Source: Thermoplasmata archaeon
GTDB taxonomy: Archaea > Thermoplasmatota > Thermoplasmata > Thermoplasmatales > ARK-15
Reading direction: 5' to 3'
NCBI GenBank assembly: GCA_049967255.1
Contig: JBMFTB010000001.1
Coordinates: 17,017-81,016, forward strand
DNA: 64,000 nt
The stretch's first letter is position 1. Each line of letters begins with the position of its first letter. Made by a program: the position numbers and the translations under genes. Below the pieces are notes generated by a model. That model did no database searches and was not told the DNA's origin. It saw only the letters and a program-made list of their open reading frames with translations. Below, in pieces: positions 7,334 through 57,689 of the stretch.

Positions 7334-7341
7334 GTGATTTT

Positions 7342-7911: not shown

Positions 7912-9723
7912 GTTCAAAGCTGTACCTTTAGAATAATTTTCCTGGATTTTGTCAGTAGTAATAAAATTAACATTCCAGCCATAAATGGAAGGCCAAGAAC
8001 CCTTATAAATGAGTAAAATACCTTCAGGAACAGAATAATCTATTTTTACACTTGTTTTAATTGAACCATACTCATTTTCAATTGTTATTTCATCATTTTC
8101 CCTAATTGAAAAATTTTCAGCATCCTTCGGATTCATTCTCACAAATGTATCAAACATATATAGGTTATTATGCTGACTTGATATGCCCTGAATATGTGTT
8201 AAACTGAGCAATTTGAAACCATTTTTATTTTCAGGTTTAAAATTCTTTAGTTCATCAATGAAATTATCCAAGTTTACTTTTATTTTATTTCTTTTTCTTT
8301 CAATTTTTGCAAATCCATTTTTATAAAATTCATCAATATTTACTTTCAAATCTTCTAGGATTCTTGATATTATGCCCATTTCACTTTCAAAGAGATCATT
8401 ATTCTTTAAGCCAAGTTTCTGTGATAATTTTACAAAAAGATCATGGTTTGAAACAGCATCTCCGGGAGGATCAAATATTTTTTGATTCAAATTTAAATAA
8501 TCATGATAGTATGAATCAACAAGATCATTAAATTCAAAAAAAGAAGCTGCAGGTATTACTACATCTGCAAACATTGCTGTATCAGTTAAAAAAAGATCAT
8601 GAACAACAATAAATATATCTTTTTCAACCAAAATTTTTCTAAGTAGATTCTGATTAGGTAATGATACTAGCGGATTTGTATTATAAACGAAAAGCATTTT
8701 TATATCTAATTTTTCCAATTCCCTACCAAGGTTAGCCTGGTTAACAAGAACCCTATTTTCATTTTTATTCCTTAGATAATCAAAATCTATTTCATGTTTA
8801 GCATCATAGATGAAGTTTTCAGGTTTTCTAAGCGCTATAAGCAGGGATTCTATTGCTTTAACAGTCAGGCCTCCATTACTTTTCCTCTGGAAACCGTATC
8901 CAATGTGAATTATTGGAAATTTTGAATTCATCAGGTCTGATGCAAATTCTTTAATTTCATCTATACCTAAACCCGTTAAATTTGATGCTTTTTCAAGTTC
9001 AAAGTTCGCTGTTATCTGGTTTAATTTATTCAATTTATATCCAAAATTTGAAATATAATTTAAAATGCCTAAAACAAGATAAATATCCGAATCAATTTTT
9101 ATTTTCAAATGTTTTCCTGCTCCTCTTGCAGAATCGGTGATCAAAGGATCAACAACGTATATTTTGGCTCCAGATTTCTTTGCCATGGTCCAACCATGAA
9201 TATTTGTCCAGGCAGGATTAATACCCCAGTAAACAATAAGATCCGAAGAAAAAATATTATCTGGATCGATGCCAGTGGAAGTACCAATGATTTCGTTTAA
9301 TGCATGACCTCCAGCCTCATCGCATACGGAGTGGTTAAGTTTTAATGTTCCAAGGGCATTAAAAAATCTTTGCGGAAAATTATAGGAGATTAATCCCCTG
9401 TTACCGGCATATTCTACAGGAAGTATTTTATCTGGCCCATAATTCTTTAAAATAAATTTAATTTTTTCAGCAACCAGATCAAGTGCATCGTTTAAATCTA
9501 CCTCCTTAAATTTGCCCTCTCCTCTATTTCCTATTCTGATCAGTGACTTTTTTAATCTTTTTTCGGACAGGTGTGCTTCAACGAAATGTTTTGATTTCAG
9601 GCAGAGAAATCCTGATGTAATTGGATGTTTTTTATTACCAAATATTTTTATTCCATCTTCAACTTTGGTGATGATGGAACAGGAATCATAGCAATCCTTA
9701 GGGCAGGATGAAAAGTATTCCAT
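7885..9723 (-). CDS. molybdopterin (MopB-family) oxidoreductase, stand-alone catalytic subunit
   Basis: N-terminal 4Fe-4S motif 'CPKDCYDSCSI..C'; MopB core; C-terminal molybdopterin-dinucleotide-binding beta-barrel. The start is moved to the ATG at 9723. The ORF-track start at 9747 is a GTG inside an A/T-rich promoter-like stretch. Confidence 0.8.
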   Translation of the reverse strand: MEYFSSCPKDCYDSCSIITKVEDGIKIFGNKKHPITSGFLCLKSKHFVEAHLSEKRLKKSLIRIGNRGEGKFKEVDLNDALDLVAEKIKFILKNYGPDKILPVEYAGNRGLISYNFPQRFFNALGTLKLNHSVCDEAGGHALNEIIGTSTGIDPDNIFSSDLIVYWGINPAWTNIHGWTMAKKSGAKIYVVDPLITDSARGAGKHLKIKIDSDIYLVLGILNYISNFGYKLNKLNQITANFELEKASNLTGLGIDEIKEFASDLMNSKFPIIHIGYGFQRKSNGGLTVKAIESLLIALRKPENFIYDAKHEIDFDYLRNKNENRVLVNQANLGRELEKLDIKMLFVYNTNPLVSLPNQNLLRKILVEKDIFIVVHDLFLTDTAMFADVVIPAASFFEFNDLVDSYYHDYLNLNQKIFDPPGDAVSNHDLFVKLSQKLGLKNNDLFESEMGIISRILEDLKVNIDEFYKNGFAKIERKRNKIKVNLDNFIDELKNFKPENKNGFKLLSLTHIQGISSQHNNLYMFDTFVRMNPKDAENFSIRENDEITIENEYGSIKTSVKIDYSVPEGILLIYKGSWPSIYGWNVNFITTDKIQENYSKGTALNSTFVNIKV

Positions 9724-9804
9724 TTTAAAATAATAAAATAATAACACCTTTTAACTTTTTCTGTACAAAAAGATTATAATCAAGTTATAATTTTTAAAGT
9801 ACTG

Positions 9805-14132: not shown

Positions 14133-15029
14133 ATGGCAGAACAGAAAAAGAGGAATCCTAGGATAGAGAGTTTCATTTTAACGCTTAAAATATTATTCCA
14201 GAGTCCTGCATCTGTATTTGGTGTTGTTGTTGTACTTTTCTATATTGCTATTGCCCTGATAGATCAATTTGATCCTTCACTGATAGGGTTGACAAATGTA
14301 AATTATTTAACACCTAATTTTACGATTCCTGAACCTTTACCACCCAGCCCTGCACATCCATTCGGCACAGTTTATCCAGGTATAGATATTTACACTGGTA
14401 TATTAAAAGCAATAAGAATAGACATAGGTTTTTCAGTATTTGTAGTTGTTTTGGGATCCGTGTCAGGAGTTCTTATTGGCATTGTATCTGCATACTTTGG
14501 TGGATGGATAGATGAAATTGTTATGCGTATTACGGATATTTTCTTTAGTATTCCATACCTTGTTCTGGCCATAGCCATAGGCTTTTTCATGGGCAGAACA
14601 TTGCTTATTCTTTCAGTTGGGTTGATTATTATTTGGTGGCCAATATATGCAAGGGTTGTAAGAGGACAAGCGCTGTCAATTAAAGAACAAACATATGTTG
14701 AAGCTGCAAGGGCTTCAGGGGTAGGGAATACAAAAATAATGTTCAAACACATATTACCTAATACATTAGCACCAATATTCGTTCAATTTTCATTCGATCT
14801 TGCAACCATTGTGCTTACCTTAGCTACTCTAAATTTCATAGGTTTTGCACCTTCAAATTCATTCCTTCCGGATATGGGTTATTTATCAGCAATAGGTTAT
14901 GAATATGCTGTTGTTGGAGATTGGTGGACAATAGTGTTCCCAGGCTTTGGTCTGTTATTGTTTGCACTTGCCATGAATCTTGTTGGTGATGGATTAAGGG
15001 ATGCTCTCGATCCCAGGTTAAGAAGGTGA
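14133..15029 (+). CDS. peptide ABC transporter permease (DppC/OppC-like)
   Basis: 'YVEAARASGVGNTKIMFKHILPN' EAA loop. Starts 3 nt after the preceding permease gene. Confidence 0.9.
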   Translation: MAEQKKRNPRIESFILTLKILFQSPASVFGVVVVLFYIAIALIDQFDPSLIGLTNVNYLTPNFTIPEPLPPSPAHPFGTVYPGIDIYTGILKAIRIDIGFSVFVVVLGSVSGVLIGIVSAYFGGWIDEIVMRITDIFFSIPYLVLAIAIGFFMGRTLLILSVGLIIIWWPIYARVVRGQALSIKEQTYVEAARASGVGNTKIMFKHILPNTLAPIFVQFSFDLATIVLTLATLNFIGFAPSNSFLPDMGYLSAIGYEYAVVGDWWTIVFPGFGLLLFALAMNLVGDGLRDALDPRLRR

Positions 15030-16417
15030 TTGCATTGGTTGAAAATAATGATGAAAAAAGGGATCCTTTGGTAATCGTAGAGAATTTAAAAACAAATTTT
15101 GTTACGTGGAAAGGTGTGGTAAAGGCGCTGGATGGTGTAAATCTTACAATATACAAAGGTGAAACTTTAGGTCTCGTAGGAGAAACAGGGTGTGGAAAAT
15201 CTGTTACATCCCTTTCAATAATGGGATTACTTTCCCCAACGGAAGGCACGATTGTAGAAGGAAAGATTACATTTGATGGGAATGATCTTACAAAGTTTGT
15301 TGGAAAAGATGTATGGATAAAAGAAAAAGGTAAAAAGGCAAAAATAAAATCTAGAAGAAGGATTTACAAAAAGGCGCAGGAATACTTAAACCAGTTCAGG
15401 GGCAAGTATATGTCAATGATATTTCAGGAACCTATGACAGCCATAAATCCTGTTTTATCCATTCAATATCAACTAACAGAACCATTACTTCATCATCAGA
15501 AGAAAGAATTGGCAACAAGGGTTCTTGCAAGGCAAAAGGTAAAGCAGGAAGATTTTATGGCTATAAAGAATGCCGTAATGTCTGAAAATAAGGAAGTTTT
15601 GAAGAGCTATTATGATAACCCCATTTATTATTCATTAATAATGCAGATGAATTCAATATTTTACAGAAAGGATTTAACATTGCTGCAAAAAAATGAACTC
15701 ATTGATGAGCTTGCAAAAGAAAAGAGACTTTCATCTTTCCGATTAAAATTTTTGGAGGATTATTCGAATGGCAGAAATAAAATAATCTATAGATTGCCTG
15801 GAATAAATGGTTATTTGATGAGGACTATAAATAAGGAGGCTGAAAGAAGGGCAATAGAACTTTTAAGATTGGTAGGGATTTATGATCCAGAAACTATAAT
15901 AAAGGAATATCCCCATGAATTGAGCGGTGGAATGAGGCAAAGGGTGATGATTGCTATGGCTTTGTCTTGCGATCCAAAGTTACTCATTGCTGATGAACCT
16001 ACAACAGCACTTGATGTCACCACCCAGGCGCAAATACTTGATCTGATGAAAGATCTTAAAGAAAGGACATCAGCATCAATTCTTTTCATTACGCATGATC
16101 TTGGTGTAATATCCGATATGGCGGATAGGGTAGCGGTTATGTACGCGGGAAATATAGTTGAAATAGGTAATAAAATGGATATTTTTTATAATCCTAAGCA
16201 TCCCTATACGCAGGGTCTTTTAAGATCTATACCAACTGAAAAGACAATGAAAGAAAAGCTTCATGTTATACCGGGATCTATACCAAACTTAATAAATCCT
16301 CCACCCGGTTGTAGATTCCATCCAAGATGTGAACATGCTATGGAGATTTGCAGCAAGGAAAAACCACCAATGAAAGAGATAGAAAAGGATCATTACGTAG
16401 CATGCTGGTTGTACTGA
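15026..16417 (+). CDS. peptide ABC transporter ATPase (DppD/OppD-like) with a large insertion
   Basis: Walker A 'GETGCGKS', Q-loop 'MIFQEP', signature 'LSGGMRQR', Walker B 'LLIADEPTTALD', C-terminal 'CRFHPRC..HYVACWL'. GTGA overlap with the permease gene. Confidence 0.9.
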   Translation: MIALVENNDEKRDPLVIVENLKTNFVTWKGVVKALDGVNLTIYKGETLGLVGETGCGKSVTSLSIMGLLSPTEGTIVEGKITFDGNDLTKFVGKDVWIKEKGKKAKIKSRRRIYKKAQEYLNQFRGKYMSMIFQEPMTAINPVLSIQYQLTEPLLHHQKKELATRVLARQKVKQEDFMAIKNAVMSENKEVLKSYYDNPIYYSLIMQMNSIFYRKDLTLLQKNELIDELAKEKRLSSFRLKFLEDYSNGRNKIIYRLPGINGYLMRTINKEAERRAIELLRLVGIYDPETIIKEYPHELSGGMRQRVMIAMALSCDPKLLIADEPTTALDVTTQAQILDLMKDLKERTSASILFITHDLGVISDMADRVAVMYAGNIVEIGNKMDIFYNPKHPYTQGLLRSIPTEKTMKEKLHVIPGSIPNLINPPPGCRFHPRCEHAMEICSKEKPPMKEIEKDHYVACWLY

Positions 16418-23768: not shown

Positions 23769-24965
23769 TTAAAGGAGGTCCTCAAATTCCTTAACAAGTT
23801 CTGGATACTTTTTCTGTACAGCATCCAGGAGACTTTTTACAGATATTGATGTTAATTCTACAGAGGATATAGCATCCACGAGCTTGTTTAATGTTTCGTC
23901 GGAAAGCATTGAAAGTTTTTCTTTTGCAAACCAATTCCTTAAATTCTTTCTCTCGAACTTTTCCCTTACCTTCTTTTCATAGTGCTCCTTAAGGAATTCC
24001 TTTGATGAATTTCCTGATTTTATTGCTTCATATGCTGCCTCTGCTGCAAGCTTGCCAGAAATACAGGCATTTGCAATACCACCACCTGTAATTGGGTCAA
24101 TCAGTCTTGCAGAATCACCTACCAGCATAACATTATCTGTAACTATCGTTTGAGGCATTTGGCAAGTAGATACCGCCCCTGTAATAAGTTCAATTGTTTT
24201 TCCCTTCTTAAGACCAGGATGTTTTTCAATGAATTCATCAAGATATTTTTTTACTTCACCTGGCCTTTTGAGCTTATTCAATGCAACACCTATGCCTACA
24301 TTCGCTTCATCGCCATTTTTTGGAAATACCCATACATATCCACCAGGTGCACAACTGCCAAGGTAAAAGTCCGTAAAATCCTTATTAATATCAATGCCAA
24401 CCATTCTGTATTCTACACATGAAACAATATCCCTGTCCTTCACCATTGTATTAATCTTTGACCATCTACCTACCTGACTTTCAAACCCATCAGCACCGAT
24501 TATTATTTTAGCCCTTACTTCAACAATTTCACCCATTCTCCTTATTTTGGCTCCTGATACCTTGCCATTTTCTATTATCAAAGAAATAGCAGGGCTTTTC
24601 ACCCAAATCTCTGCCCCTTCTCTTGCAGCTAATGCTGCAAGATATTTGTCAAATTTGTCCCTTTCTATAATATAGCCCACTTCATTACCTGCCCTGGCTG
24701 CTGAAAGTTTTATGAACGTTTTTTCATCCGGCGGATATATCCTGGCACCTTCAACTTCGTTGGATATCCAGTTTGGCTGTGCTTCAATTTCTACTTCAGG
24801 TAACCAGCTTTTTGAAATGCCTTCGCCACACCGAACCGGTGAACCGATATCTGGCCTTTTTTCTATCATTAATACCCTTAAGCCCTTCCTTGAGGCAAAC
24901 CTAGCAGCAGAGCTACCTCCAGGTCCTGCCCCAATAACAAGTACATCATACTCAAATGATTTCAT
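23769..24965 (-). CDS. digeranylgeranylglycerophospholipid (geranylgeranyl) reductase
   Basis: FAD motif 'YDVLVIGAGPGGSSAA'; 'RCGEG'; 'LVGDSARLIDPITGGGI'. The start is set to MKSFEYD (24965). The 22 upstream codons of the track ORF overlap the ferredoxin gene in another frame. Confidence 0.9.
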   Translation of the reverse strand: MKSFEYDVLVIGAGPGGSSAARFASRKGLRVLMIEKRPDIGSPVRCGEGISKSWLPEVEIEAQPNWISNEVEGARIYPPDEKTFIKLSAARAGNEVGYIIERDKFDKYLAALAAREGAEIWVKSPAISLIIENGKVSGAKIRRMGEIVEVRAKIIIGADGFESQVGRWSKINTMVKDRDIVSCVEYRMVGIDINKDFTDFYLGSCAPGGYVWVFPKNGDEANVGIGVALNKLKRPGEVKKYLDEFIEKHPGLKKGKTIELITGAVSTCQMPQTIVTDNVMLVGDSARLIDPITGGGIANACISGKLAAEAAYEAIKSGNSSKEFLKEHYEKKVREKFERKNLRNWFAKEKLSMLSDETLNKLVDAISSVELTSISVKSLLDAVQKKYPELVKEFEDLL

Positions 24966-25138
24966 TTGAACCACTCCGCAGAAATCGCACCCATCGGGCA
25001 TATTCTTATGCAAAAGCCACATTTTGTGCATGCTTTTTCATCAATAATAATCCTTGTTTCATCAAGGTACATGCAATTAACGGGGCAAGAGCCAACGCAG
25101 GCACCACAGTAATTGCATTTGGAAGTATCAACTTCCAT
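24962..25138 (-). CDS. 2x[4Fe-4S] ferredoxin, 58 aa (below the ORF-track cutoff)
   Basis: Hand translation: MEVDTSKCNYCGACVGSCPVNCMYLDETRIIIDEKACTKCGFCIRICPMGAISAEWFK*. Two CxxCxxCxxxCP motifs. The stop overlaps the reductase ATG (ATGA), and the start lies 4 nt after the radical-SAM stop codon. Confidence 0.8.
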   Translation of the reverse strand: MEVDTSKCNYCGACVGSCPVNCMYLDETRIIIDEKACTKCGFCIRICPMGAISAEWFK

Positions 25139-27393: not shown

Positions 27394-29157
27394 TCACCTG
27401 AATGCATATGCAGGGCATGGGCCGATGCATTTTGTACAGTGCATGCATCTTTCTTCATTTATCCAAACCTTACCATTCTCCAAATATAGTGCATCTTTAT
27501 CGCATCTGCCAGTGCATATACCACACCCAACACATTCCTCTGATTCATATATTATCTGTATGCCAATATCAATGAATCTTTTATCTATAATAATTTTATT
27601 ATTAATTTCATAAAAATTTTTAGGTAAAATATTCATCATATTTTTTAATCTTACTAAATCAATAACATTGTTAGCTTTTATTTCAAAACTCTTCCCGTAT
27701 TCGATTTTCTCTATCTCAAGTGAAGTTCTTTTAAATCCATCAAAACCAAATCTACTTTTCAAAAATTCAGGAAGTGAATTCCATCGCCATAAACCGTAGG
27801 ATAACCATTCATCTGGTATATTATTCTTTTTGGCATAACTTTTCAAAAACTCTTCCCATTTTTCATATTCCCTATAATTGTTCTTGACAATGTTTAAATC
27901 ACTTAAGTCTTGTGATGGGCACATAAAACAACCCGTTCTCCAAAGGCCCATATCATACCAAGGATTATATTCAAGGCCATGCTCAAATATATAAATCCAT
28001 ACCATAAGTGAGTTCCAGTTCTGAATGGGACTTATTCCTATCTGATTTGGCACCCATCTATTTTCCCATATCTCACCCTTGCTTGATCTCGTTTTGCTTT
28101 CATATGCCCTCTGACCTATGAGCATATATATTGGACCACTTGAATGTTCTTTTATGTATCTTGTTGTCGGCCCGAGTTTGCAAACTTTGCAACACCATCT
28201 ATAATCTCGACCTGGTGGACCAAAATGATCGAGATTTAAAAAAAATGCGTTACCTGCATCTATTATATCAAGATCAAGCTGGAATTTTTCAGCTGTTTTT
28301 TTAACATATTCTATTGTTTCTTTGAATTCAAGTCCAGTGTTCAAAAATACTGTTTTGAACTTTATTCCAGATCTTATTGCAAGATGCAATGCAACAAGAC
28401 TATCCTTTCCACCACTAAATGAAACAAATGTATTTTTTCCATCCAATTTTTTAATCATTTCAATAGATTTTTCTTCCCTGAATTTCATATAGTTTCTATT
28501 TGCTTCAATTATTTTTTTCATATCCCCTTTTTTATCAGGTATTTTGATATCCTCCATTAGAAACTTTACCTTAACTGCCATACCCCTTTCAATTTTTTCA
28601 TTTTTTGATATTCTTGAAATACCCAGTGCAATGGGTATTTTATTATCATTAACAATAAATGCATCCCTGTCTTTTTTTACATCATCTCCTATTTTTATTA
28701 TGCCAGGTGCCATTAAATTGGTACCCTTTTTTATTGATTCAATTGCAACAGGGTCTGCTTGTATGAAAATATCCTTTAAATGTTCCTTTGCAACAACATA
28801 AAAATGTGGTCTGAGCGCGACCTTTAATTTATTAAAGTCATGCATAACAGTAGCAATAACATAACCGCCAACGATTATTTCTTCGGATCTATCAGGACCA
28901 GGAATTCTGTTCAATACAATTACTTTCTCAGAAAAAACTTCTGAAAAATTTATTTTTAAAATATCTTTGAATGATTCATCAAGTATTTCCATATCCCCCT
29001 TTAATGGAAATTTAAAATCGCCTGGAGGTGTTACATTAACCTTTCTTGATTCCGATCTGCAAATATCACATTTCTTCCCCAATATGGGTACGTTGCAATT
29101 ATCACACCAGTTCAAGTTTACTTTCCCAAGAAATACCACATTAGACACATAAAACAA
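27394..29157 (-). CDS. Zn-ribbon / PUA / PAPS-reductase-like PP-loop ATPase / 2x[4Fe-4S] ferredoxin fusion protein
   Basis: 'WCDNCNVPILGKKCDIC' zinc ribbon. PUA-like region ('GTNLMAPGI'). PP-loop 'SFSGGKDS'. 'RWCCKVCK' and 'GCFMCP' cysteine pairs. C-terminal 'CVGCGICTGRC..CMHCTKCIGPCP'. The start codon is uncertain (TTG at 29157). Confidence 0.7.
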   Translation of the reverse strand: MFYVSNVVFLGKVNLNWCDNCNVPILGKKCDICRSESRKVNVTPPGDFKFPLKGDMEILDESFKDILKINFSEVFSEKVIVLNRIPGPDRSEEIIVGGYVIATVMHDFNKLKVALRPHFYVVAKEHLKDIFIQADPVAIESIKKGTNLMAPGIIKIGDDVKKDRDAFIVNDNKIPIALGISRISKNEKIERGMAVKVKFLMEDIKIPDKKGDMKKIIEANRNYMKFREEKSIEMIKKLDGKNTFVSFSGGKDSLVALHLAIRSGIKFKTVFLNTGLEFKETIEYVKKTAEKFQLDLDIIDAGNAFFLNLDHFGPPGRDYRWCCKVCKLGPTTRYIKEHSSGPIYMLIGQRAYESKTRSSKGEIWENRWVPNQIGISPIQNWNSLMVWIYIFEHGLEYNPWYDMGLWRTGCFMCPSQDLSDLNIVKNNYREYEKWEEFLKSYAKKNNIPDEWLSYGLWRWNSLPEFLKSRFGFDGFKRTSLEIEKIEYGKSFEIKANNVIDLVRLKNMMNILPKNFYEINNKIIIDKRFIDIGIQIIYESEECVGCGICTGRCDKDALYLENGKVWINEERCMHCTKCIGPCPAYAFR

Positions 29158-35469: not shown

Positions 35470-36585
35470 ATGAAATCTCTCCTTAAGGATGTATTATCCA
35501 AATCCTACACGAATGAAAATCTTTATAAAAATCAAGAACCAGTTACTGAAACAGAGGAAGATAAAGAACTTGAAGAAATTTTAAAGGGTCTTAAAACTGT
35601 AATAAGAATAATCGGGTGTGGTGGTGGAGGATCAAACACAATCACTAGAATAATGGAGGAAGGAGTAGTAGGTGCTGAATTAATAGCTGCAAATACAGAT
35701 GCTCAACATCTGCTGATTACAAAGGCACAGAAAAAAATATTACTAGGTAAAAGAACAACAAGGGGTCTTGGTGCGGGTGCAATTCCTCAGATAGGTGAAG
35801 AGGCGGCAAGGGAAGCAGAGGATAAAATTAAGGAAGTGCTTCAGGGCTCAGATATAGTATTCATTACCTGTGGGTTGGGTGGTGGCACAGGCACTGGTTC
35901 TGCACCTTTTGTTGCTAAGGTAGCAAAAGAACTTGGTGCATTGACAATAGCTGTTTGTACCCTTCCATTTGCATCAGAGGGCAGATCAAGGATGGAAAAT
36001 GCAACCTACGGTCTGGATAAGCTCAGGGAAACATCAGATACAGTAATTACAATACCAAATGATAAACTTTTAGAGATTGTTCCGAGAATGCCCCTAAATG
36101 ATGCATTTAAGGTCGCTGATACCGTTTTAATGAGGGCCATTAAGGGGCTTACAGAAATGATCACTAAGCCAGGTCTTGTAAATCTGGATTTCAACGATTT
36201 AAGAACAATTATGAAGGATGGTGGAGTTGCAATGATTGGTGTTGGTGAGAGTGAATCACCTGGAGATGAGCGTGCACAGGAAGCATTAAACGATGCTATA
36301 AACTCTCCACTCCTTGAAGTTGATATATCATCCGCAACAGGCGTTCTTGTTCATGTTATTGGAGGACCTGAAATGACAGTATCCGAAGCCCAAACAATTG
36401 TTGAAGAGGTTCATAAGCGTGTTGGAGATAAGGCAAGGATAATATGGGGTGCTGCTATTGATCCTGATTTTGAAGGGAAGATTAATGTAATGATCGTGGC
36501 CACAGGTGTTAAATCAAAACAGATCATGGGCAAAATCACGGAGCAGGAACTAAGGGAAAGGCATGGAGTAGACGTGATTAAGTGA
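35470..36585 (+). CDS. ftsZ: cell division GTPase FtsZ
   Basis: 'IGCGGGGSN', tubulin signature '[12 protein letters not shown]', 'NDKLL', 'NLDFNDL'. Confidence 0.95.
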
Positions 36586-36613: not shown

Positions 36614-38065
36614 ATGTATAATGGTCCAATTGAAAAGATAGACAATTTTAGATGGAAAATACCAAAGACGTACAAAAAAGGTATGCGTGTAGATGGTATT
36701 ATATTTGCATCAGAGCATATGATAGAAGAGATTAAAAAGGATAATGCTCCCGAACAGGTGGCAAACGTTGCATTTCTTCCGGGCATTATAAGGGCATCCT
36801 ATGCAATGCCGGATATTCACTGGGGCTATGGATTTCCTATTGGTGGCGTTGCAGCATTTGATTATGATGATGGGATAATCAGCCCTGGGGGCGTAGGATA
36901 TGATATAAACTGTGGTGTAAAGATGTTGAGAACAGATCTAACAATAAAAGATGTTCAGCCAAAAATAAAGGAACTCATTGATGCAATATTCAAGGAAGTT
37001 CCAAGTGGAGTTGGGTCTGAGGGAAAAATAAAACTGAACAGGAACGAATTGAATAATGTCCTTGCAGAAGGTGCAAAATGGGCAGTTTCAAATGGATTTG
37101 GCTGGGAAGAAGATCTTGAAAGAATAGAAGAAAATGGTAGGATATCTAATGCTGATCCTTCAAAGGTATCTGATAAGGCAAAGTCAAGGGGTGCCCCGCA
37201 ACTAGGTTCTTTAGGTGCTGGAAACCATTTCCTTGAAGTTCAGGTTGTGGATAAAATATACATACCTGACATTGCTAAAAAATTCGGCATAACAGAAGAG
37301 GGGCAAGTAACAGTGATGATACATACCGGTTCAAGGGGTCTGGGTCATCAGGTAGCAACGGATTATATAGAGATTATGGAAAGTGCTACAAAAAAATATA
37401 ACATTCAATTACCAGACAAGCAGCTGGCAAGCGCACCTATACATTCCAAGGAGGCACAGGATTACATTTCAGCAATGGCAGCAGCTGCAAATTTCGGATT
37501 TGTAAACAGGCAGATGATCAATCACTGGGCAAGAACTGCTTTTGAAAAGATATTTAATGCATCTGCTGAAGCCCTTGGTATGCACGTGATATATTCACTT
37601 GCACATAACATTGCTAAAATAGAAGAATATGAAATTGATGGTAGAACAAAAAAGGTAATTGTTCACAGGAAGGGTGCTACAAGGGCCTTTCCAGCAGGAC
37701 ATCCTGCTCTTCCGAAAATTTATATGGATATAGGGCAGCCTGTCCTAATACCCGGGGATATGGGAAGGGCATCATATTTACTTGTTGGAACAGATCAGGC
37801 AATGCATGAAACATTTGGCTCTACGTGCCATGGAGCAGGCAGAATATTATCAAGAAATGAAGCACTTAGAAGGTACAGGGGTGAACAGGTAAAAAGGGAT
37901 CTATTGCAGAAAGGCATATATGTAAAATCGGCGAGTTCAGATGTTGCTGCAGAAGAGGCACCAGGTGCGTACAAAAATGTTGATGACGTTGTAGAGGCTG
38001 TACAGGGCGCAAATATTTCAAAAATAGTGGTAAGGATGAGGCCAATAGGGGTAATGAAGGGCTAA
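36614..38065 (+). CDS. rtcB: RNA-splicing ligase RtcB
   Basis: 'PDIHWGYGFPIGG', 'GYDINCGV', 'GAGNHFLE', 'HTGSRGLGHQ', 'STCHGAGR'. Confidence 0.95.
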   Translation: MYNGPIEKIDNFRWKIPKTYKKGMRVDGIIFASEHMIEEIKKDNAPEQVANVAFLPGIIRASYAMPDIHWGYGFPIGGVAAFDYDDGIISPGGVGYDINCGVKMLRTDLTIKDVQPKIKELIDAIFKEVPSGVGSEGKIKLNRNELNNVLAEGAKWAVSNGFGWEEDLERIEENGRISNADPSKVSDKAKSRGAPQLGSLGAGNHFLEVQVVDKIYIPDIAKKFGITEEGQVTVMIHTGSRGLGHQVATDYIEIMESATKKYNIQLPDKQLASAPIHSKEAQDYISAMAAAANFGFVNRQMINHWARTAFEKIFNASAEALGMHVIYSLAHNIAKIEEYEIDGRTKKVIVHRKGATRAFPAGHPALPKIYMDIGQPVLIPGDMGRASYLLVGTDQAMHETFGSTCHGAGRILSRNEALRRYRGEQVKRDLLQKGIYVKSASSDVAAEEAPGAYKNVDDVVEAVQGANISKIVVRMRPIGVMKG

Positions 38066-38751
38066 AAAATGTAAAAAAAGTCGAAGAAATAGGATAAAAT
38101 GAAAGCTATTAACATTGAAAATATGAATGGCGTTTGGTACTTTATCCATTCACCATTTACATATAGATGTGTGAAAATGTAATTTAATTTTTTTTCAGCT
38201 TTATTTTTAATATTTTTAATCAGCACATAAATCATAAAAATTATTGCATTGATTATAGCAGCGTAAAAAATCACTTCCAACGAATAAGGAAAGACAATAG
38301 AAACTATCTCTCTATTAGAGTAAAAATTTGTAAAAAGCTGTGGATAAAGGGGATTTAGGAGTGAAATTGCCATTATTGCCCTTGCATCTGCCTTACCACC
38401 AATTGCGCCAAAATGGTATAAATATTTATAGGCAAGGAGAAGAACACCATCAACGAATAAAAATTTATGTTCATTTGTAAAAAGAAGCAACATAAGAAGT
38501 GTAATGAAAAAAACCAAATCAATATAATTTTCATAATTTTTAATATCAATAAACCATAAAAAGAATATGAGAATCAATACTGTCAAATATAAAAAATCTG
38601 AAGTATATTCTATGATTAAAAATATGGATGCAACAATACCCATCAATAGCCATAAAAAACTTGTAATTTCCCTATCCTTTAAATCCTGATAGGAGCCTAT
38701 CCCAAGGAATACAATCCCTGTTATAAACTTTAGAATATTTATCAAATCCAT
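38062..38751 (-). CDS. A24-family aspartic peptidase-like membrane protein (prepilin/preflagellin peptidase homologue)
   Basis: Polytopic. First Asp motif 'GSYQDLKDREIT'; second 'GAIGGKADARAI' (a GGADAK-like variant). Confidence 0.55.
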   Translation of the reverse strand: MDLINILKFITGIVFLGIGSYQDLKDREITSFLWLLMGIVASIFLIIEYTSDFLYLTVLILIFFLWFIDIKNYENYIDLVFFITLLMLLLFTNEHKFLFVDGVLLLAYKYLYHFGAIGGKADARAIMAISLLNPLYPQLFTNFYSNREIVSIVFPYSLEVIFYAAIINAIIFMIYVLIKNIKNKAEKKLNYIFTHLYVNGEWIKYQTPFIFSMLIAFILSYFFDFFYIF

Positions 38752-38817
38752 TAATTTGACATGAACAATTAATGATTTTAATTTATCATTCTTTAAATGA
38801 GAAAGATTTAAATATTA

Positions 38818-38833
38818 TTACTCATTTGAGTAA
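38818..38833. promoter_or_regulatory. perfect 7-bp inverted repeat TTACTCA-TT-TGAGTAA between the TATA-like box and the start of the cluster
   Basis: Read directly. Lies 15 nt upstream of the ATG at 38848 and just downstream of 'aaagatttaaatatta'. Confidence 0.3.
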
Positions 38834-38847
38834 TAAGGTGATGTAAA

Positions 38848-39129
38848 ATGTTTGGACAAGGTTGGTATGGTGGTAGAGGAAGAGGATGGGGAGCTACACT
38901 TGGATATTGCCCTTGGACGGGCATGCCTAGAGGATGGAGATGGGGGTATGGATATTACCAAGGTACACAGTACAATCCTTACCAGACATACTATAATCCA
39001 GGCCAGTATTATCAGATTACACAGCCATTCAATACCCAAGATGAAAAAACGGCCCTTGAGAATGAATTAAGATACCTCCAAGAAAGAATGGATGAAATAA
39101 GAAAAAGACTGGATGAATTGAAAAAGTAA
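38848..39129 (+). CDS. small Gly/Trp/Tyr/Arg-rich protein with a C-terminal coiled coil (DUF5320-like)
   Basis: 'MFGQGWYGGRGRGWGATLGYCPWTGMPRGWRWGYGYYQG..' followed by 'EKTALENELRYLQERMDEIRKRLDELKK'. SD-like 'aaggtga' lies upstream. Three competing frames overlap this locus, and this one has the coherent architecture. Confidence 0.6.
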   Translation: MFGQGWYGGRGRGWGATLGYCPWTGMPRGWRWGYGYYQGTQYNPYQTYYNPGQYYQITQPFNTQDEKTALENELRYLQERMDEIRKRLDELKK

Positions 39130-39187
39130 ACTATTTTTACCATAAATTTATTTATTTTTTTGTATTGTCCTGATTGGTGATTATTAA

Positions 39188-39619
39188 ATGAGATTATGCA
39201 TAGCCACATCTGGACCAGGTGGCTTAAAAGATTATGTAAGCCCAAATTTTGGAAGATGCCCAACATTTACAATAGTTGATCTTGAAGGGGATATTGTAAA
39301 AAATGTTGAGGTAATTCAGAACCCGGGTGCTTATGCTGGAAGCGGTGCAGGTATTCAGGCAGCACAGGCTGTTGTAAATTCCGGATGCAATGTTTTGATC
39401 GCAGGTGCGATTGGGCCCAATTCATTTCAAGTTTTATCAATGGGTAGAATAGATATGCGTGATTGTCCCTATATGCCCGTCGAAGATGCAATAAAGGCGT
39501 TTTTATCAGGAAAACTTCAACCATCCACAGGAATGGGATACGGCCCTGGTTATGGTAGAGGTGGTAGGGGCATGGGCGGTGGGAGGGGTATGGGAAGGGG
39601 TGGCGGTGGTCCTTGGTGA
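39188..39619 (+). CDS. NifX/NifB-C ('MTH1175 / orange protein'-like) metallocluster-binding domain protein with an RGG-rich tail
   Basis: 'MRLCIATSGPGGLKDYVSPNFGRCPTFTIVDLEG..NPGAYAGSGAGIQAAQAVVNSGCNVLIAGAIGPNSFQVL'. Tail 'GMGYGPGYGRGGRGMGGGRGMGRGGGGPW'. Confidence 0.8.
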   Translation: MRLCIATSGPGGLKDYVSPNFGRCPTFTIVDLEGDIVKNVEVIQNPGAYAGSGAGIQAAQAVVNSGCNVLIAGAIGPNSFQVLSMGRIDMRDCPYMPVEDAIKAFLSGKLQPSTGMGYGPGYGRGGRGMGGGRGMGRGGGGPW

Positions 39620-39628
39620 TGAGTCAGT

Positions 39629-40483
39629 ATGAAGATTGCCATAACGGGTGGAAAAGGTGGAACAGGTAAAAGCACAGTTGCAATAAATTTAGCGACGCTA
39701 TTATCAAAGAAAATTAAGGTTACGCTTGTAGATGCAGATGTTGAATGCCCCAACGATCATATTTTATTATCAATGAATCTAGAAAATGAAGAAAAAAGCT
39801 GGATTTTTAGGCCAAAATTCAATTATTCAAAATGCACAAAATGCACATTGTGCAGGGAAAATTGTTCTGAAAATGCAATAGTAATGTTCAAGGAGGGTTA
39901 CCCTTTTCTTATGCCCACATTGTGTTCAGGATGCAGAACCTGCCAGCTTGTTTGCCCAGCAAATGCCATAGATGATGATAGAAAAATTATTGGTAGCACG
40001 TATATAACAGAAATAAATGAAAATTTAAAACTGGTAACTGGGATGCTTAAGGAAGGGGAAGAGAGATCCTATCCTCTTGTACTATCCACAAGAAAAAGGG
40101 CTGAATCTGTTGATTCTGAACTAAAGATTTTCGATACCTCAGCTGGCACAGGAAATCATGTTGCTGCAGCATTAGAGGATGCAGCATTTGCAATTGTAGT
40201 TACAGAACCAACCCCTCTTGGAATACATGATCTAAAAATGATAATGAATCTGCTTAGGAAACAGGGTATCAGGGGATACGTAATTATTAACAGGTACGAT
40301 CTTATTGATGAAATGCCTGATCTTGAAGACCTTGAAATAATAGGAAAAATTCCGTTAAGTGATGAAATTGTTAAAAGTTATGTGGAGGGAAAACCAGTTG
40401 TAACAATATACCCTGATAGCCATGCATCGAAAGAATTTGAAAGAATATCCAGGAAAGTGGAGGAGTTACTATGGCAGAAATAG
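39629..40483 (+). CDS. MinD/ParA-superfamily P-loop ATPase with an inserted 2x[4Fe-4S] ferredoxin domain
   Basis: Deviant Walker A 'ITGGKGGTGKST'. Insert 'CTKCTLCRENCSENAI..CSGCRTCQLVCPANAI'. Starts 9 nt after the NifX-like gene. Confidence 0.85.
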   Translation: MKIAITGGKGGTGKSTVAINLATLLSKKIKVTLVDADVECPNDHILLSMNLENEEKSWIFRPKFNYSKCTKCTLCRENCSENAIVMFKEGYPFLMPTLCSGCRTCQLVCPANAIDDDRKIIGSTYITEINENLKLVTGMLKEGEERSYPLVLSTRKRAESVDSELKIFDTSAGTGNHVAAALEDAAFAIVVTEPTPLGIHDLKMIMNLLRKQGIRGYVIINRYDLIDEMPDLEDLEIIGKIPLSDEIVKSYVEGKPVVTIYPDSHASKEFERISRKVEELLWQK

Positions 40484-41352
40484 TAATAGCGAGTGGAAAG
40501 GGTGGTGTGGGTAAAAGTACTGTGTCATCATCATTATCAGTGTTATTATCCCATAAAAATTTAGCAATAGTTGATGCTGATGCTGAAGCACCGAACCTAC
40601 ATTTAATATTTAACGTTGAAAATTGGGAAAAAGAAATTGAATACAGGGAAAAGAGCATAGCAGTAATTGATTATTCTGGATGTGTACAGTGCATGCTTTG
40701 TCAGGATGTATGCACATATGAGGCAATAGAAAAGATTGATAATTTTCCAAAAGTAAAGGATTTCATTTGTGAAGGTTGTGGTGCATGTAAAATAATATGT
40801 CCAAAAAATGTAATATCCATAAAGAAAAACAATCTTTCAGGATGGATTAGGATAGGTAAGACAGTTTACGGCCCTTTCGTTAGCTCTGAACTCGATGTTG
40901 GACAGCCAAATTCAGGAAAGCTTGTTACAGAGGAAAAGAATATTGCAAGGGACTGGATAAAAAATGGTATTGTAAAAAATATAATAGTGGATTCTGCTGC
41001 TGGCATCGGCTGTCAGGTAATTGCATCAATGAGCGGTGCCACACATGCGGTTTTAGTAGCTGAACCTACAAAATCAAGTCTTAGCGATATGGAAAGAGCT
41101 TTTTATCTCGCTGAACATTTCAGGATTAAATCATTCATTGTAATTAATAAGTTTGATCTTAACCCGGATTTCAGGGATATTTTTGAATTTGCAAATAAGA
41201 ATGATTTAGAGATAATTGGAAAAATACCATACGATAAGAATGTAGCCAAATCCATGGTTTATAGAAAACCACTTGTAGAATTTAGTCCAGAATCTCCTGC
41301 AGCCAAGGCCATGGTTGAAATTTCTAAAAATGTAGAAAATTTATTGGATTAG
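40471..41352 (+). CDS. MinD/ParA-superfamily P-loop ATPase with an inserted 2x[4Fe-4S] ferredoxin domain (paralogue)
   Basis: 'IASGKGGVGKST'. Insert 'CVQCMLCQDVCTYEAI..CEGCGACKIICPKNVI'. 13-nt overlap with the preceding paralogue. Confidence 0.85.
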   Translation: MAEIVIASGKGGVGKSTVSSSLSVLLSHKNLAIVDADAEAPNLHLIFNVENWEKEIEYREKSIAVIDYSGCVQCMLCQDVCTYEAIEKIDNFPKVKDFICEGCGACKIICPKNVISIKKNNLSGWIRIGKTVYGPFVSSELDVGQPNSGKLVTEEKNIARDWIKNGIVKNIIVDSAAGIGCQVIASMSGATHAVLVAEPTKSSLSDMERAFYLAEHFRIKSFIVINKFDLNPDFRDIFEFANKNDLEIIGKIPYDKNVAKSMVYRKPLVEFSPESPAAKAMVEISKNVENLLD

Positions 41353-53663: not shown

Positions 53664-54065
53664 TCATAGCCATCTTCCGTCTTCACCGTAAAATTCCTTT
53701 TTCCAGATTGGTACTTTTTCCTTTATTTTGTCAATTATGAATTTGCAGGCATTAAAAGCATCTTCCCTATGCATTGATGAAACACCAATAAAAACTACAA
53801 TATCCTTAGGATAAAATTCCCCAATCCTGTGATGGACACAAACATCTATGATGTTAAACATTGAAAATGCATCATTAACAACGTTTTTAAGTTCCATTTC
53901 AGCCATTGGCATATAGGCATCATATATGATCTTTGAAACATTTTTTCCATCGTTTAAATTTCTTACAGTACCTATAAATGTAACAATAGCGCCATTTTTT
54001 TCTGAATTGATCAAGGATATCATTTTCTCAATGTTTATTTCTTCAGATGAAATTTTAATGAACAT
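53664..54065 (-). CDS. moaE: molybdopterin synthase catalytic subunit
   Basis: 'GAIVTFIGTVRN', 'HRIGEF', 'VPIWKKE'; 133 aa. Confidence 0.85.
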   Translation of the reverse strand: MFIKISSEEINIEKMISLINSEKNGAIVTFIGTVRNLNDGKNVSKIIYDAYMPMAEMELKNVVNDAFSMFNIIDVCVHHRIGEFYPKDIVVFIGVSSMHREDAFNACKFIIDKIKEKVPIWKKEFYGEDGRWL

Positions 54066-56068: not shown

Positions 56069-56476
56069 ATGCGGTACAGATTGGACAAAGGATCGCATTC
56101 AGTTTACGCTCTTTATTATCACTATGTCCAAGTTGTGAAGTACCGCAGGAAGGTGTTCGAAAGTGAGAATATAGTAAACTACCTGAAGGAACAAATTCAA
56201 GAGATAAGTAAAACATTCGAGGTTGAGGTCATAGACATGGGAATAGATAAAGATCACTTCCACATGTTATTCAGGGCAAAACCTACATTGAATATACCCA
56301 AATACATAAACGCGGTCAAGACAATCACATCCAGGGAAATACAGAGGAAATTTCCACAGGTCAAGGAAAAACTATGGAAAGGACACTTCTGGTCACCATC
56401 CTACTTCCTAGCAACGAGTGGACAAGTAACATTAGAGGTACTGAAAAAATATGTGGAGAGCCAAGGAAAAGAATAA
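56069..56476 (+). CDS. tnpA: IS200/IS605 Y1 (HUH) transposase TnpA
   Basis: 'HSVYALYYHYVQVVKYRRKVF', HUH motif 'DHFHMLF', catalytic Tyr region 'WSPSYFLATSG'; 135 aa. Confidence 0.92.
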   Translation: MRYRLDKGSHSVYALYYHYVQVVKYRRKVFESENIVNYLKEQIQEISKTFEVEVIDMGIDKDHFHMLFRAKPTLNIPKYINAVKTITSREIQRKFPQVKEKLWKGHFWSPSYFLATSGQVTLEVLKKYVESQGKE

Positions 56477-57689
56477 CAAGATTCAACTCTCATTCAAGTA
56501 CAAGATTTACCCAACGAAAGAAGTAGAAGAGAAGCTACTCAAAGTGATGCAAATTGAGGCTAAAGTGTATAATACTTTGTTAGATGCGGTGAATAATGCA
56601 AGAAAAGAGGGAAGAAAGATAACACCTAAGGACACTCAAAACATATTGAAAGATCTGAACGTGGAGAGAAAAGATCTGGTCTACTCCAAAGCTCTTCAAA
56701 TGGTGAACAATCAACTATGGTATAACATCAACACTCTTCACGAACTGAAGAATAAAGGAAAGAAAGTGGGGAAACTGAGGTACAAGAAGATCATGAAGGT
56801 CATCAACTATAATCAATCTGGTTTCAAAGTGGTTGGGGACAAACTGATCCTCTCAAAGATAGGAGAGATAAGAGTACTCTTCCACAGACCGTTAGAAGGT
56901 GAGATAAAAGGAATAATAATAAATAAGAGTGCGACTGGCTGGTATGCAATATTTCAAGTTGAGGTAGAAAAGGAACCTCTTGAAAGGACTGGGAAAGTAG
57001 TAGGGATTGACTTAGGAGTAGAAAAGCTAGTAACTACTTCTGATGGCATAGTGATAGAGAATCCTAAATTCTTTGATAAGACCGAGAAAAGGATAAAGAT
57101 CTTGCAAAAGTCATCGTCAAGAAAGAAGAAAGGATCTAGAAACTACGAGAAGGTCAGAAAGAAGTTAGCCAAAAAACACGAGTATGAAAAGAACTTGATG
57201 GATGATTATATTCATAAGGTGACTTCATGGCTTGTGGAGCAGTATGATGAGATCTACGTAGAAGATCTTGATGTGAAGAAAATGGTTGAAGATAGTAACA
57301 GTAAAACTTTGAGAAAGCATATCCTTCACTCTAACTTCTCCAAGTTCATGAGCTACCTCTCCTACAAGGCTAGTAGAGCTGGTAGGAGAGTAGTGAAAGT
57401 AGATCCAAGAAATACTTCAAAAACATGTGGTAAGTGTGGTTACGTGAAAAAAGACCTAACTCTATCTGATCGTGTCTTCTCATGTCCCAAGTGCGGTTGG
57501 ACTGTAGACCGTGATTATAATGCATCTCTAAATATTCTTCGTGCGGGGTTGGGACTACCCTTGGAGCCTATGGACAGGAAACCTCTGCAGTATATTCCCT
57601 TTTCCGAGGGAGTGTATAGTAAGTTTCCTGGAAGAAGAAGGAAATATCCATCGCGAGGTGGAGATGCCCCGTCCCTAAGGGCGGGGTAG
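56451..57689 (+). CDS. tnpB: TnpB (IS605 OrfB) RNA-guided endonuclease, catalytic residues intact
   Basis: 'YKIYPTKE' N-terminus. RuvC-I 'VVGIDLGV', RuvC-II 'IYVEDLDV', Zn finger 'CGKCGYV..CPKCGWT', RuvC-III 'VDRDYNASLNI'. Overlaps tnpA by 26 nt. Confidence 0.92.
   Translation: MWRAKEKNNKIQLSFKYKIYPTKEVEEKLLKVMQIEAKVYNTLLDAVNNARKEGRKITPKDTQNILKDLNVERKDLVYSKALQMVNNQLWYNINTLHELKNKGKKVGKLRYKKIMKVINYNQSGFKVVGDKLILSKIGEIRVLFHRPLEGEIKGIIINKSATGWYAIFQVEVEKEPLERTGKVVGIDLGVEKLVTTSDGIVIENPKFFDKTEKRIKILQKSSSRKKKGSRNYEKVRKKLAKKHEYEKNLMDDYIHKVTSWLVEQYDEIYVEDLDVKKMVEDSNSKTLRKHILHSNFSKFMSYLSYKASRAGRRVVKVDPRNTSKTCGKCGYVKKDLTLSDRVFSCPKCGWTVDRDYNASLNILRAGLGLPLEPMDRKPLQYIPFSEGVYSKFPGRRRKYPSRGGDAPSLRAG

Follow-up and report, generated by a model that had tools for sequence, protein, structure and literature searches.

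A Thermoplasmata gene cluster related to the proposed ORP/IssA-type iron-sulfur handling operons of anaerobes

We analysed a 64,000-nt stretch of DNA from a Thermoplasmata archaeon (GenBank assembly GCA_049967255.1, contig JBMFTB010000001.1, positions 17,017 to 81,016 of the forward strand), referred to below in its full length as the window, and in particular four adjacent genes whose products are numbered proteins 1-4 in gene order: a DUF5320 protein, a NifX/MTH1175-like protein and two MinD-fold ATPases with inserted ferredoxin (Fer4) domains. Our preferred explanation, to which we assign a probability of about 55%, is that these genes form an archaeal member of a widespread, anaerobe-associated type of operon that sequesters and mobilises iron-sulfur (Fe-S) and that includes the orange protein (ORP) and IssA systems. 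The ORP core and the IssA family are already known, and the window holds a variant form of this known operon type; the link between DUF5320 and the IssA tail, and the breadth of the DUF5320-NifX-ATPase module, are undescribed as far as our literature search shows. An earlier, sequence-only reading of the window had offered two roles for the cluster, metallocluster trafficking and a redox-gated, MinD-like positioning system, and the evidence presented here favours the former and not the latter.

Protein 1 had been described as DUF5320-like, and it does match the Pfam DUF5320 model (PF17253) above the gathering cut-off (42.3 bits against 27, model positions 11-99 of 99). In the AlphaFold2 prediction its Gly/Trp/Tyr/Arg-rich residues 1-62 are disordered and residues 63-92 form a single helix of coiled-coil type, with a per-residue confidence score (predicted local distance difference test, pLDDT) below 50 at residues 1-20 and 32-62, about 51 at the motif described next and about 85 at the helix. 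The canonical N-terminal MPxGDGTGP motif of DUF5320 is missing, and alignment of the window-type family (A3) instead reveals three parts: GRG repeats followed by an invariant block, G-A-x-L-G-Y-C-P-W-T-G-x-P-R-G-W-R-W, that contains the sole Cys; a variable Tyr/Pro/Gly/Gln-rich stretch; and a conserved helix of about 30 residues. This subfamily is small and divergent, since an exhaustive profile search recovered 49 representative clusters at E<=1e-3 among 1.84 billion proteins, but one protein (P0271) unites the canonical MPxGDGTGP...GYC motif with the window-type motif. Another (P0279) carries the GLGYCPSTGLPRGWRW motif and a coiled coil behind a hydrophobic, transmembrane-like N-terminal region. 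Influenza HA2, which emerged as a possible solved relative of protein 1 at E ~0.01 or worse, was dismissed as a chance match to a coiled-coil stem. Our literature search found no relevant publication for DUF5320 or for COG1149/COG1433, and no functional study of DUF5320.

The remaining three proteins are likewise assigned with confidence to known families. Protein 2 matches Pfam Nitro_FeMo-Co (PF02579) with 72 bits against a cut-off of 26.3, and its closest solved relatives are MTH1175 (E=4e-20) and then the ORP of Desulfovibrio gigas (2wfb; E=4e-14); membership of the NifX/MTH1175 family, which had been set in advance as a test of the sequence-only reading, is thereby upheld. Behind a globular domain of approximately residues 1-112 comes a cationic Gly/Arg/Met tail, GMGYGPGYGRGGRGMGGGRGMGRGGGGPW, of about 30 residues, which has a pI of 11.55 and 55% Gly and lacks Cys. 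Identity is 51% to a Gly/Arg-tailed NifX-like protein of Thermococcus paralvinellae and 36% to D. gigas ORP. Proteins 3 and 4 match Pfam CbiA/ParA together with a series of Fer4 models, and both the Pfam matches and the translations agree with their earlier description as paralogous deviant-Walker-A ATPases (GGKGGTGKST and SGKGGVGKST, respectively) with a ferredoxin insert. This insert spans about 65 residues and contributes eight Cys in two [4Fe-4S] motifs to each protein. The motif had been written as a doubled CxxCxxCxxxCP, which is accurate for the second copy, but in each ATPase the first copy ends in CS or CT.

Linkage of these families extends far beyond the window. We searched an arbitrary sample of one genome per GTDB species with an alignment (A1) of the window ATPase pair and its archaeal and bacterial homologues. 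The matches listed, to which the counts below refer, comprised at least 29 true Fer4-inserted ATPase loci and about 50 generic MinD/Mrp loci that served as a control set; all open reading frames (ORFs) of both sets were scored with purpose-built profiles, and neighbours were counted within 5 kb. A NifX-like gene was found at 27/29 Fer4-ATPase loci versus 1/50 controls, and DUF5320 or a NifX-DUF5320 fusion at 16/29 versus 0/50, which indicates a grouping beyond chance, although the control loci differ taxonomically from the test loci and so exclude chance but not lineage effects. Seven of the DUF5320 matches found by profile were borne out by Pfam. The ATPase pair is tandem or fused in nearly all of the 29 loci, nine of which also contain a plain Mrp-like ATPase. 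Archaeal loci are labelled Nitrososphaerota, Methanomethylicota, Methanothrix, Ca. Methanoxibalbensis and Thermoplasmatota, and bacterial ones include Desulfobacteraceae, Zixiibacteriota, Dehalococcoidia, Clostridia, Bacteroidales, Spirochaetes, Synergistaceae, Victivallaceae and Coriobacteriia.

The order seen in the window (DUF5320, NifX-like, ATPase, ATPase) recurs in Methanomethylicota, Clostridia, Synergistaceae, Zixibacteria and others. In the sampled loci DUF5320 usually lies directly beside the NifX-like gene, and the two remain adjacent even where the ATPases are absent. Gene fusions join the same partners: a NifX domain, a Gly/Arg/Met-rich linker and a DUF5320-type coiled coil form one protein at loci L006, L012, L015 and L028, and protein 2 of the window ends in a linker of the same kind. 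The Desulfobacteraceae example (L012, 1170-2162) adds a second NifX domain after the coiled coil, the linker of the L028 protein (14956-15657) is a long GRGMG repeat, and a Clostridia protein (L017, 8449-9021) has a Zn-ribbon after its NifX domain and Gly/Arg linker. In Victivallaceae (L031, 8745-10613) both ATPases are encoded as one 622-aa protein with four Cys motifs.

Comparison within Thermoplasmata separates what is conserved from what is incidental. At the locus with 81% ATPase identity (L096-98) the synteny L10e-DUF835-ftsZ-rtcB-membrane protein-DUF5320 is retained, with four minus-strand genes, one of them encoding an ABC-transporter ATPase, inserted between DUF5320 and NifX-ATPase-ATPase (6373-9305). 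Relatives with 70% identity (L099-101) show FeS_assembly_P, NifX, ATPase, ATPase, DUF5320, DUF134, Usp, radical SAM and CGGC in that order, and ftsZ is not present at the locus; at 60% identity (L091/92) only NifX-ATPase-ATPase is left. From this comparison we conclude that the four genes are co-conserved yet permutable and that the ftsZ link is a shallow lineage feature. Co-conservation had been named beforehand as a check on the sequence-only reading, and it holds, in rearranged form within Thermoplasmata and as the core plus DUF5320 across phyla. The significance then attached to nearby ftsZ and molybdenum (Mo) genes did not survive, because ftsZ is lost at 70% and 60% ATPase identity and the Mo genes are scattered 3-30 kb away.

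A census of 150 co-directional neighbouring ORFs from 33 loci against Pfam points the same way. The commonest families were further copies of Nitro_FeMo-Co (8), Radical_SAM (8), Lactamase_B (7), ARMT1-like (6), NifU_N (6), DUF134 (6), Zn_ribbon_8 (5), Fer4 (4) and FUR (3), and no Mo-cofactor, molybdate-transport, Mop or division family was among the 25 commonest. This make-up favours iron or Fe-S handling over a role in molybdenum metabolism or division.

The closest characterised archaeal relative of the cluster is IssA/SipA of the Thermococcales, which was absent from the sequence-only reading; its statement that no archaeal member had an assigned function is outdated. IssA of Pyrococcus furiosus (PF2025) combines a NifX-like IPR003731 domain with a 70-residue cationic, aromatic, Gly-rich tail that contains its only Cys, keeps iron and sulfide in store as nanoparticles of thioferrate and can in vitro reconstitute the [4Fe-4S] cluster of ferredoxin, and MTH1175 has been placed in its clade (PMC5524996). 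That clade is delimited by fewer than five Cys, at least 20% Gly in the C-terminal 40 residues and a pI of at least 9 (Vaccaro et al. 2017, Suppl. Fig. 7), and protein 2, with four Cys and 45% Gly in its last 40 residues, agrees with it on the first two counts. The DUF5320 N-terminus, GRGWGATLGYCPWTGMP, matches the IssA tail GRGWGARLGYCPATGMP of Palaeococcus pacificus, and the shared motif of IssA/SipA and protein 1 can be written GRGWGA(R/T)LGYCP(A/W)TG(M/L)P: a 202-aa Pa. pacificus gene product ends ...GRGGRGWGARLGYCPATGMPNRRNWLARFFGWW, and protein 1 opens ...GGRGRGWGATLGYCPWTGMPRGWRW. Scored against the DUF5320 N-terminal profile, the SipA tail reaches 23.0 bits, compared with no more than 4.7 for 2000 composition-preserving shuffles.

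Pa. pacificus also ties this tail to the ATPases. Its protein P0110, encoded at 1.16 Mb of CP006019, is 50% identical to protein 4 and adjoins its own paralogue, and genes for 111-aa and 202-aa Nitro_FeMo-Co proteins lie exactly 18 called genes downstream of this ATPase pair (L102). By gene count, with locus tags stepping by five, the ATPases correspond to PAP_06425/06430 and the NifX-like proteins to PAP_06515/06520 (SipA), of which PAP_06425, PAP_06430, PAP_06515 and PAP_06520 rank 3rd, 5th, 2nd and 1st among S0-induced genes (PMC6981617). An archaeal ATPase pair identified in this way is thus induced by sulfur together with IssA/SipA. We judged by inspection that the Gly/Arg-tailed T. paralvinellae protein most similar to protein 2 is probably the counterpart of PAP_06515. 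As a separate observation, the Methanococcus voltae IssA homologues Mvol_0689 and Mvol_0693, which are raised on pyrite, are four locus tags apart (PMC8516115, PMC9431491), the spacing expected, as judged from locus tags, for a NifX-ATPase-ATPase-x-NifX cluster.

A neighbour-joining tree of 65 ATPases resolves two ancient paralogue groups, each common to bacteria and archaea, with proteins 3 and 4 in different groups, as would fit an obligate heterodimer. All sampled members of the protein 4 group have a Cys seven residues after the switch-II Asp (DxxxGIGC), which in protein 4 is Cys181 (DSAAGIGC), an invariant column in alignments A1 and A4. Bacterial members of the protein 3 group keep a switch-II Cys (PPGTSC), but in an archaeal subclade that takes in the window, other Thermoplasmata, Thermococcus, Thermoprotei and Methanomethylicota it is replaced by Asn or Ala (Asn in protein 3, GTGNHV). 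Loss of this Cys on one side and its retention on the other predicts an asymmetric heterodimer in these archaea. The AlphaFold2 model of protein 4 (mean pLDDT 93.9) finds its best Foldseek matches in the archaeal MinD structures 1hyq, 1ion and 1g3q (best E=2.9e-17), and 1hyq is also a sequence match to the ATPase core (E=1e-17). The fold matches listed are confined to MinD, ParA, NifH and Mrp folds and shed no light on the insert, and no ferredoxin-inserted MinD-type ATPase is among the 50 best. Both window ATPases fall below the cut-off of the archaeal MinD model (minD_arch, TIGR01969; 97 and 68 bits against 201.75), and no MinD-like C-terminal extension is seen in the MinD alignment or the AlphaFold2 model, where protein 4 stops at the last helix of the fold.

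The same tree links the cluster to the ORP complex, as proteins 3 and 4 share their paralogue groups with ATPases from L008 and L021, loci that encode close ORP homologues. In such Desulfobacterota-like loci, the genes for close homologues of D. gigas ORP belong to clusters of the order NifX-ATPase-ATPase-NifX-Zn_ribbon_8. That the ORP system had its origin in archaea has already been proposed (PMC8359166). The match to this complex drawn in the sequence-only reading is sound for the core of NifX-like protein and ATPase pair, but it does not extend to DUF5320 as an ORP subunit, to MrpORP or to OrpR. The cluster proteins score far below the cut-off of the MrpORP model (NF041136; 26-66 bits against 450), and there is no third ATPase in the cluster. 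Orp5 has been described as homologous to a small Cys-rich [2Fe-2S] protein (PMC6345978) and is most likely of the Zn_ribbon_8 gene type seen at L008. An equation of Orp5 with DUF5320 was considered and ruled out on these grounds, namely the likeness to a [2Fe-2S] protein and the Zn_ribbon_8 gene in the equivalent position at L008; Zn_ribbon_8 is matched by none of proteins 1-4 in Pfam.

Based upon these observations, we infer a single complex of proteins 1-4, an iron-sulfide substrate, and both the direction and the redox nature of the ATPase step. Protein 2 would be a NifX-like carrier whose globular domain binds inorganic Fe-S, either as clusters or as a thioferrate-like polymer, and whose cationic Gly/Arg tail would help to hold anionic iron sulfide. 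Protein 1 would supply in trans what IssA of the Thermococcales carries in cis, a disordered cationic GYCP(W/A)TG(M/L)P segment with a single Cys; its coiled coil would dimerise, and proteins 1 and 2 together would act as a 'split IssA'. Proteins 3 and 4 would form a heterodimer homologous to Orp3/Orp4, with four [4Fe-4S] clusters in all, that docks on the NifX-like protein. Such docking is suggested by the ORP complex of Desulfovibrio vulgaris, from which Orp3, Orp4 and Orp8 co-purify and in which MrpORP can transfer Fe-S clusters to these proteins (PMC6345978). ATP binding and hydrolysis, with electrons passing via the ferredoxin modules, might then either load Fe-S onto the store or release it reductively to apo-proteins. 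A broader proposal, about which we are doubtful, is that DUF5320 proteins in general are free-standing IssA tails, borne as cationic, aromatic, disordered segments on a coiled-coil dimer, and that, with NifX-like carriers and Orp3/Orp4-type ATPases, they make up one ancient machine of anaerobic bacteria and archaea that would mineralise iron sulfide as a store and draw preformed Fe-S units from it by means of ATP and electrons. If true, this would amount to a ferritin-like but sulfide-based route feeding Fe-S maturation in parallel to SUF and ISC, and would unify the ORP complex and IssA, which have so far been studied separately.

Several points weigh against the Fe-S handling explanation. 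We know of no biochemistry for any DUF5320 protein or any archaeal Fer4-inserted ATPase. The match to the IssA tail consists of one motif of about 20 residues in low-complexity sequence; the Pfam DUF5320 model does not match the SipA/IssA tail, and BLASTP of the IssA tail aligns just a 10-residue core (E=0.004). The tail comparison used the C-terminal 52 residues of the presumed Pa. pacificus SipA, and the identity of the 202-aa gene with PAP_06520 was assigned by gene counting. The pI of protein 2, 8.78, narrowly misses the value used to delimit the IssA clade, its tail is short and Cys-free, unlike the long tail of that clade, and its putative link to the clade comes from MTH1175 as the best relative in the PDB. 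Gene 1 may be a separate transcription unit. Elements in the 58-nt gap after it (Table 1) might act as a partial terminator behind gene 1 and provide gene 2 with a promoter and ribosome site of its own, and a separate unit fits L096-98, where DUF5320 is split off from the NifX-like gene by the four minus-strand genes; in L091/92 DUF5320 is absent. As to function, P. furiosus without IssA still forms thioferrate-like iron, and IssA may serve detoxification, not supply (PMC8219758). Finally, D. gigas ORP was isolated with a Mo-Cu-S, not an Fe-S, cluster, according to work cited in PMC6345978.

Other explanations share parts of this evidence. One is a cofactor-biosynthesis module, in which the ATPases would be NifH-like, ATP-dependent reductases or insertases and the NifX-like protein, in place of a general Fe-S store, would carry a special metallocluster for one client enzyme such as a radical SAM or nitrogenase-like enzyme. 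We consider this unlikely, even though the protein 4 Cys lies seven residues past the switch-II Asp, as in NifH, radical SAM proteins account for 8 of the 150 census neighbours and also adjoin the ATPase pair in Thermococcales, and NifX/NafY proteins carry nitrogenase cofactor precursors (PMC5524996). The radical SAM neighbours may not be orthologous to one another, and no single client enzyme recurs in the census; moreover, the system is spread over very diverse anaerobes with different metabolisms, and its induction by sulfur and iron alongside IssA indicates bulk Fe-S handling. A strict orange-protein system, in which protein 2 would bind a Mo or tungsten (with or without copper) sulfide cluster for Mo/W homeostasis or enzyme maturation, seems to us a little less probable again. 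It could appeal to the non-covalent S2MoS2CuS2MoS2 cluster of D. gigas ORP (as cited in PMC6345978), to the identity of that protein with protein 2 and to the presence of moaA, moaE and a MopB enzyme within the window. These genes are, however, 2.7, 12 and 29 kb away, none is in the flanks read of more distant Thermoplasmata relatives, and Mo-cofactor, molybdate-transport and Mop families are outside the top 25 of the census; protein 2 is itself nearer to MTH1175 and to the IssA-neighbour type of Thermococcus (51%) than to ORP.

Gly/Arg-rich disordered regions commonly bind RNA, and gene 1 could accordingly be unrelated to its neighbours, encoding an independent RGG-type nucleic-acid-binding or condensate-forming protein beside a three-gene ORP core. 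The T7 run, TATA-like element and separate ribosome site in the gap, the four opposite-strand genes that part DUF5320 from the core in L096-98, its absence from L091/92, and the recurrence nearby of the DNA-binding-type DUF134, whose L102 copy is RG-rich at its start, would all suit such a protein. This is improbable in view of the occurrence of DUF5320 at 16/29 ATPase loci listed but 0/50 controls, mostly adjoining the NifX-like gene, the NifX-DUF5320 fusions in several phyla and the motif common to DUF5320 and the IssA tail. Least credible of all is the redox-gated, MinD-like positioning or cell-division system. A putative part in cell division has been ascribed to the ORP complex, with MrpORP at a cell pole, and a MinD-like C-terminal amphipathic helix has been reported for Orp3/Orp4 (PMC6345978, PMC4672049); ftsZ lies 2.3 kb upstream in the window and is linked also in L096-98, and MinD is the best structural match. 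Against this, the ftsZ linkage disappears in the 70% and 60% identity relatives and is missing from the cross-phylum census, scores with the archaeal MinD model lie far below its cut-off, protein 4 is without the C-terminal extension, and MinC, MinE and other division partners are not linked.

The layout of the cluster and its surroundings is given in Table 1. The ORF list exactly matches the earlier account of four co-directional genes separated by gaps of 58 and 9 nt and then a 13-nt overlap; this overlap, between genes 3 and 4, suggests translational coupling. The span had been drawn from 38818 to 41352, of which the end is right, but the real ATG is 30 nt further downstream than the proposed start. 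The presence of ftsZ 2.3 kb upstream and of moaA, moaE and the MopB enzyme inside the window agrees with the coordinates, and unrelated genes are interleaved between the latter three and the cluster.

Table 1. The four genes, candidate control elements and other genes discussed (positions in the window; elements marked 'by eye' are candidates).
Feature	Position	Strand	Remarks
Gene 1, protein 1	38848-39129	+	93 aa, DUF5320 (PF17253)
Gene 2, protein 2	39188-39619	+	143 aa, NifX/MTH1175/ORP-type (PF02579)
Gene 3, protein 3	39629-40483	+	284 aa, Fer4-inserted MinD-fold ATPase
Gene 4, protein 4	40471-41352	+	293 aa, Fer4-inserted MinD-fold ATPase, second paralogue
Candidate archaeal TATA box TTTAAATA	38807-38814	+	by eye; ~37 nt 5' of protein 1 ATG
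GGTGAT, Shine-Dalgarno-like motif, gene 1	38837-38842	+	by eye
ATAAATTT, TATA-like element in 58-nt gap	39142-39149	+	by eye; precedes T run
T7 run in 58-nt gap	39155-39161	+	by eye
GGTGAT, ribosome-site candidate of gene 2	39176-39181	+	by eye; after T run
ftsZ	35470-36585		ends 2262 nt upstream of gene 1
moaA	44074-44994		2.7 kb from cluster
moaE	53664-54065		12 kb from cluster
MopB enzyme	7885-9747		29 kb from cluster

Some further features of these surroundings deserve mention. A 229-aa hydrophobic, apparently multi-pass membrane protein without a Pfam match is encoded at 38062-38751 on the minus strand, and a gene equal in size, which likewise matches no Pfam family, holds this position, between rtcB and the divergent DUF5320 gene, in L096-98. 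A gene for a DUF134 protein (sigma70_r4-like helix-turn-helix) occurs near the cluster in several loci (L099, 7368-7562; L094, 7174-7527; L102, 12868-13215) and may encode a dedicated regulator; the Pa. pacificus (L102) protein opens with the RG-rich stretch MPWGMGRGKGRGRRRK. Elsewhere in the window, a minus-strand gene at 27394-29157 encodes a 587-aa PUA and PAPS_reduct protein with two ferredoxin-type Cys motifs, which matched the ATPase profile through its Fer4 part. A 58-aa ORF with two [4Fe-4S] motifs (24962-25138, minus strand) sits directly before a geranylgeranyl reductase gene on the same strand (23769-25031), whose start it overlaps and for which it may encode a dedicated ferredoxin. 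An IS200-like Y1 transposase (Pfam Y1_Tnp, E=1e-40) at 56069-56476 is overlapped by a 412-aa ORF (56451-57689), and the pair may be an IS200/IS605-type element.

The ways in which strict anaerobes store iron and sulfide and assemble their very numerous Fe-S proteins are poorly understood; what the ORP complex does has been a question since 2011, and work on IssA has treated it as a lone protein. The evidence assembled here joins the ORP core, IssA and DUF5320 into one conserved module and names parts of it that can be tested: the GYCPWTG motif, the coiled coil, the asymmetric switch-II Cys, and the sulfur-induced ATPase pair of a cultivable Thermococcales species. The window itself is an ordinary member of the module in an uncultured Thermoplasmata genome, and its value lies in the connection rather than the locus.

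Comparison with better-known systems helps to place the cluster. Archaeal and bacterial MinD is the best sequence and fold match to the ATPase core, but the window ATPases differ in scoring below the minD_arch cut-off, in their insert of about 65 residues and in their lack of a C-terminal extension, and no MinC-, MinE-type or other division partner is linked, either among the cluster ORFs or in the cross-phylum census. The Mrp/NBP35/ApbC ATPases, which are Fe-S cluster carriers, are likewise dimeric SIMIBI-class proteins with a deviant Walker A; their defining CXXC is absent from the window ATPases, which have instead the ferredoxin insert and, in protein 4, a single switch-II Cys, and which score 60-66 bits with the MrpORP model against a cut-off of 450 and 38 bits with the ApbC model against one of 348. 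NifH with NifX/NafY also pairs a dimeric Fe-S ATPase with a NifX-fold cluster carrier, and the Cys132-Asp125 spacing of NifH is that between the protein 4 Cys and its switch-II Asp. The similarity to NifH is nevertheless weak (E ~1e-5 to 1e-3), there are no nif genes near the window cluster, and the NifH [4Fe-4S] cluster bridges the dimer, whereas the window ATPases hold their clusters in the inserted ferredoxin domain.

The two closest systems are the ORP complex and IssA. Like the window cluster, the ORP complex of D. vulgaris Hildenborough (Orp3/4/5/8/9) has a single-domain NifX-like protein adjoining two Fe-S ATPases, and the Orp3/Orp4-type ATPases contain two [4Fe-4S] motifs each, as do proteins 3 and 4. 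It differs in its MrpORP fusion and sigma54/OrpR control, neither of which was found in the window cluster, and in its Orp5-type Zn-ribbon/[2Fe-2S] protein, in place of which the window has a one-Cys DUF5320 protein; conversely, the bacterial counterparts of protein 3 keep the switch-II Cys that protein 3 lacks, and the cationic Gly/Arg tail of the window NifX-like protein is not a feature of the ORP complex. IssA and protein 1 both contain a cationic, aromatic, Gly-rich disordered segment with a single Cys, and the IssA/SipA gene and gene 1 of the window each adjoin a second NifX-like gene of the protein 2 type. The IssA tail, however, is long, W/G/R-rich and fused to a NifX domain, whereas the motif segment of the window belongs to a separate protein with a terminal coiled coil, and the tail of protein 2 is short and Cys-free. 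The best reading of the gene arrangement is that the window may represent the two-gene arrangement of the Thermococcales with a coiled coil substituted for the NifX domain of the tail-bearing partner, a 'split IssA'.

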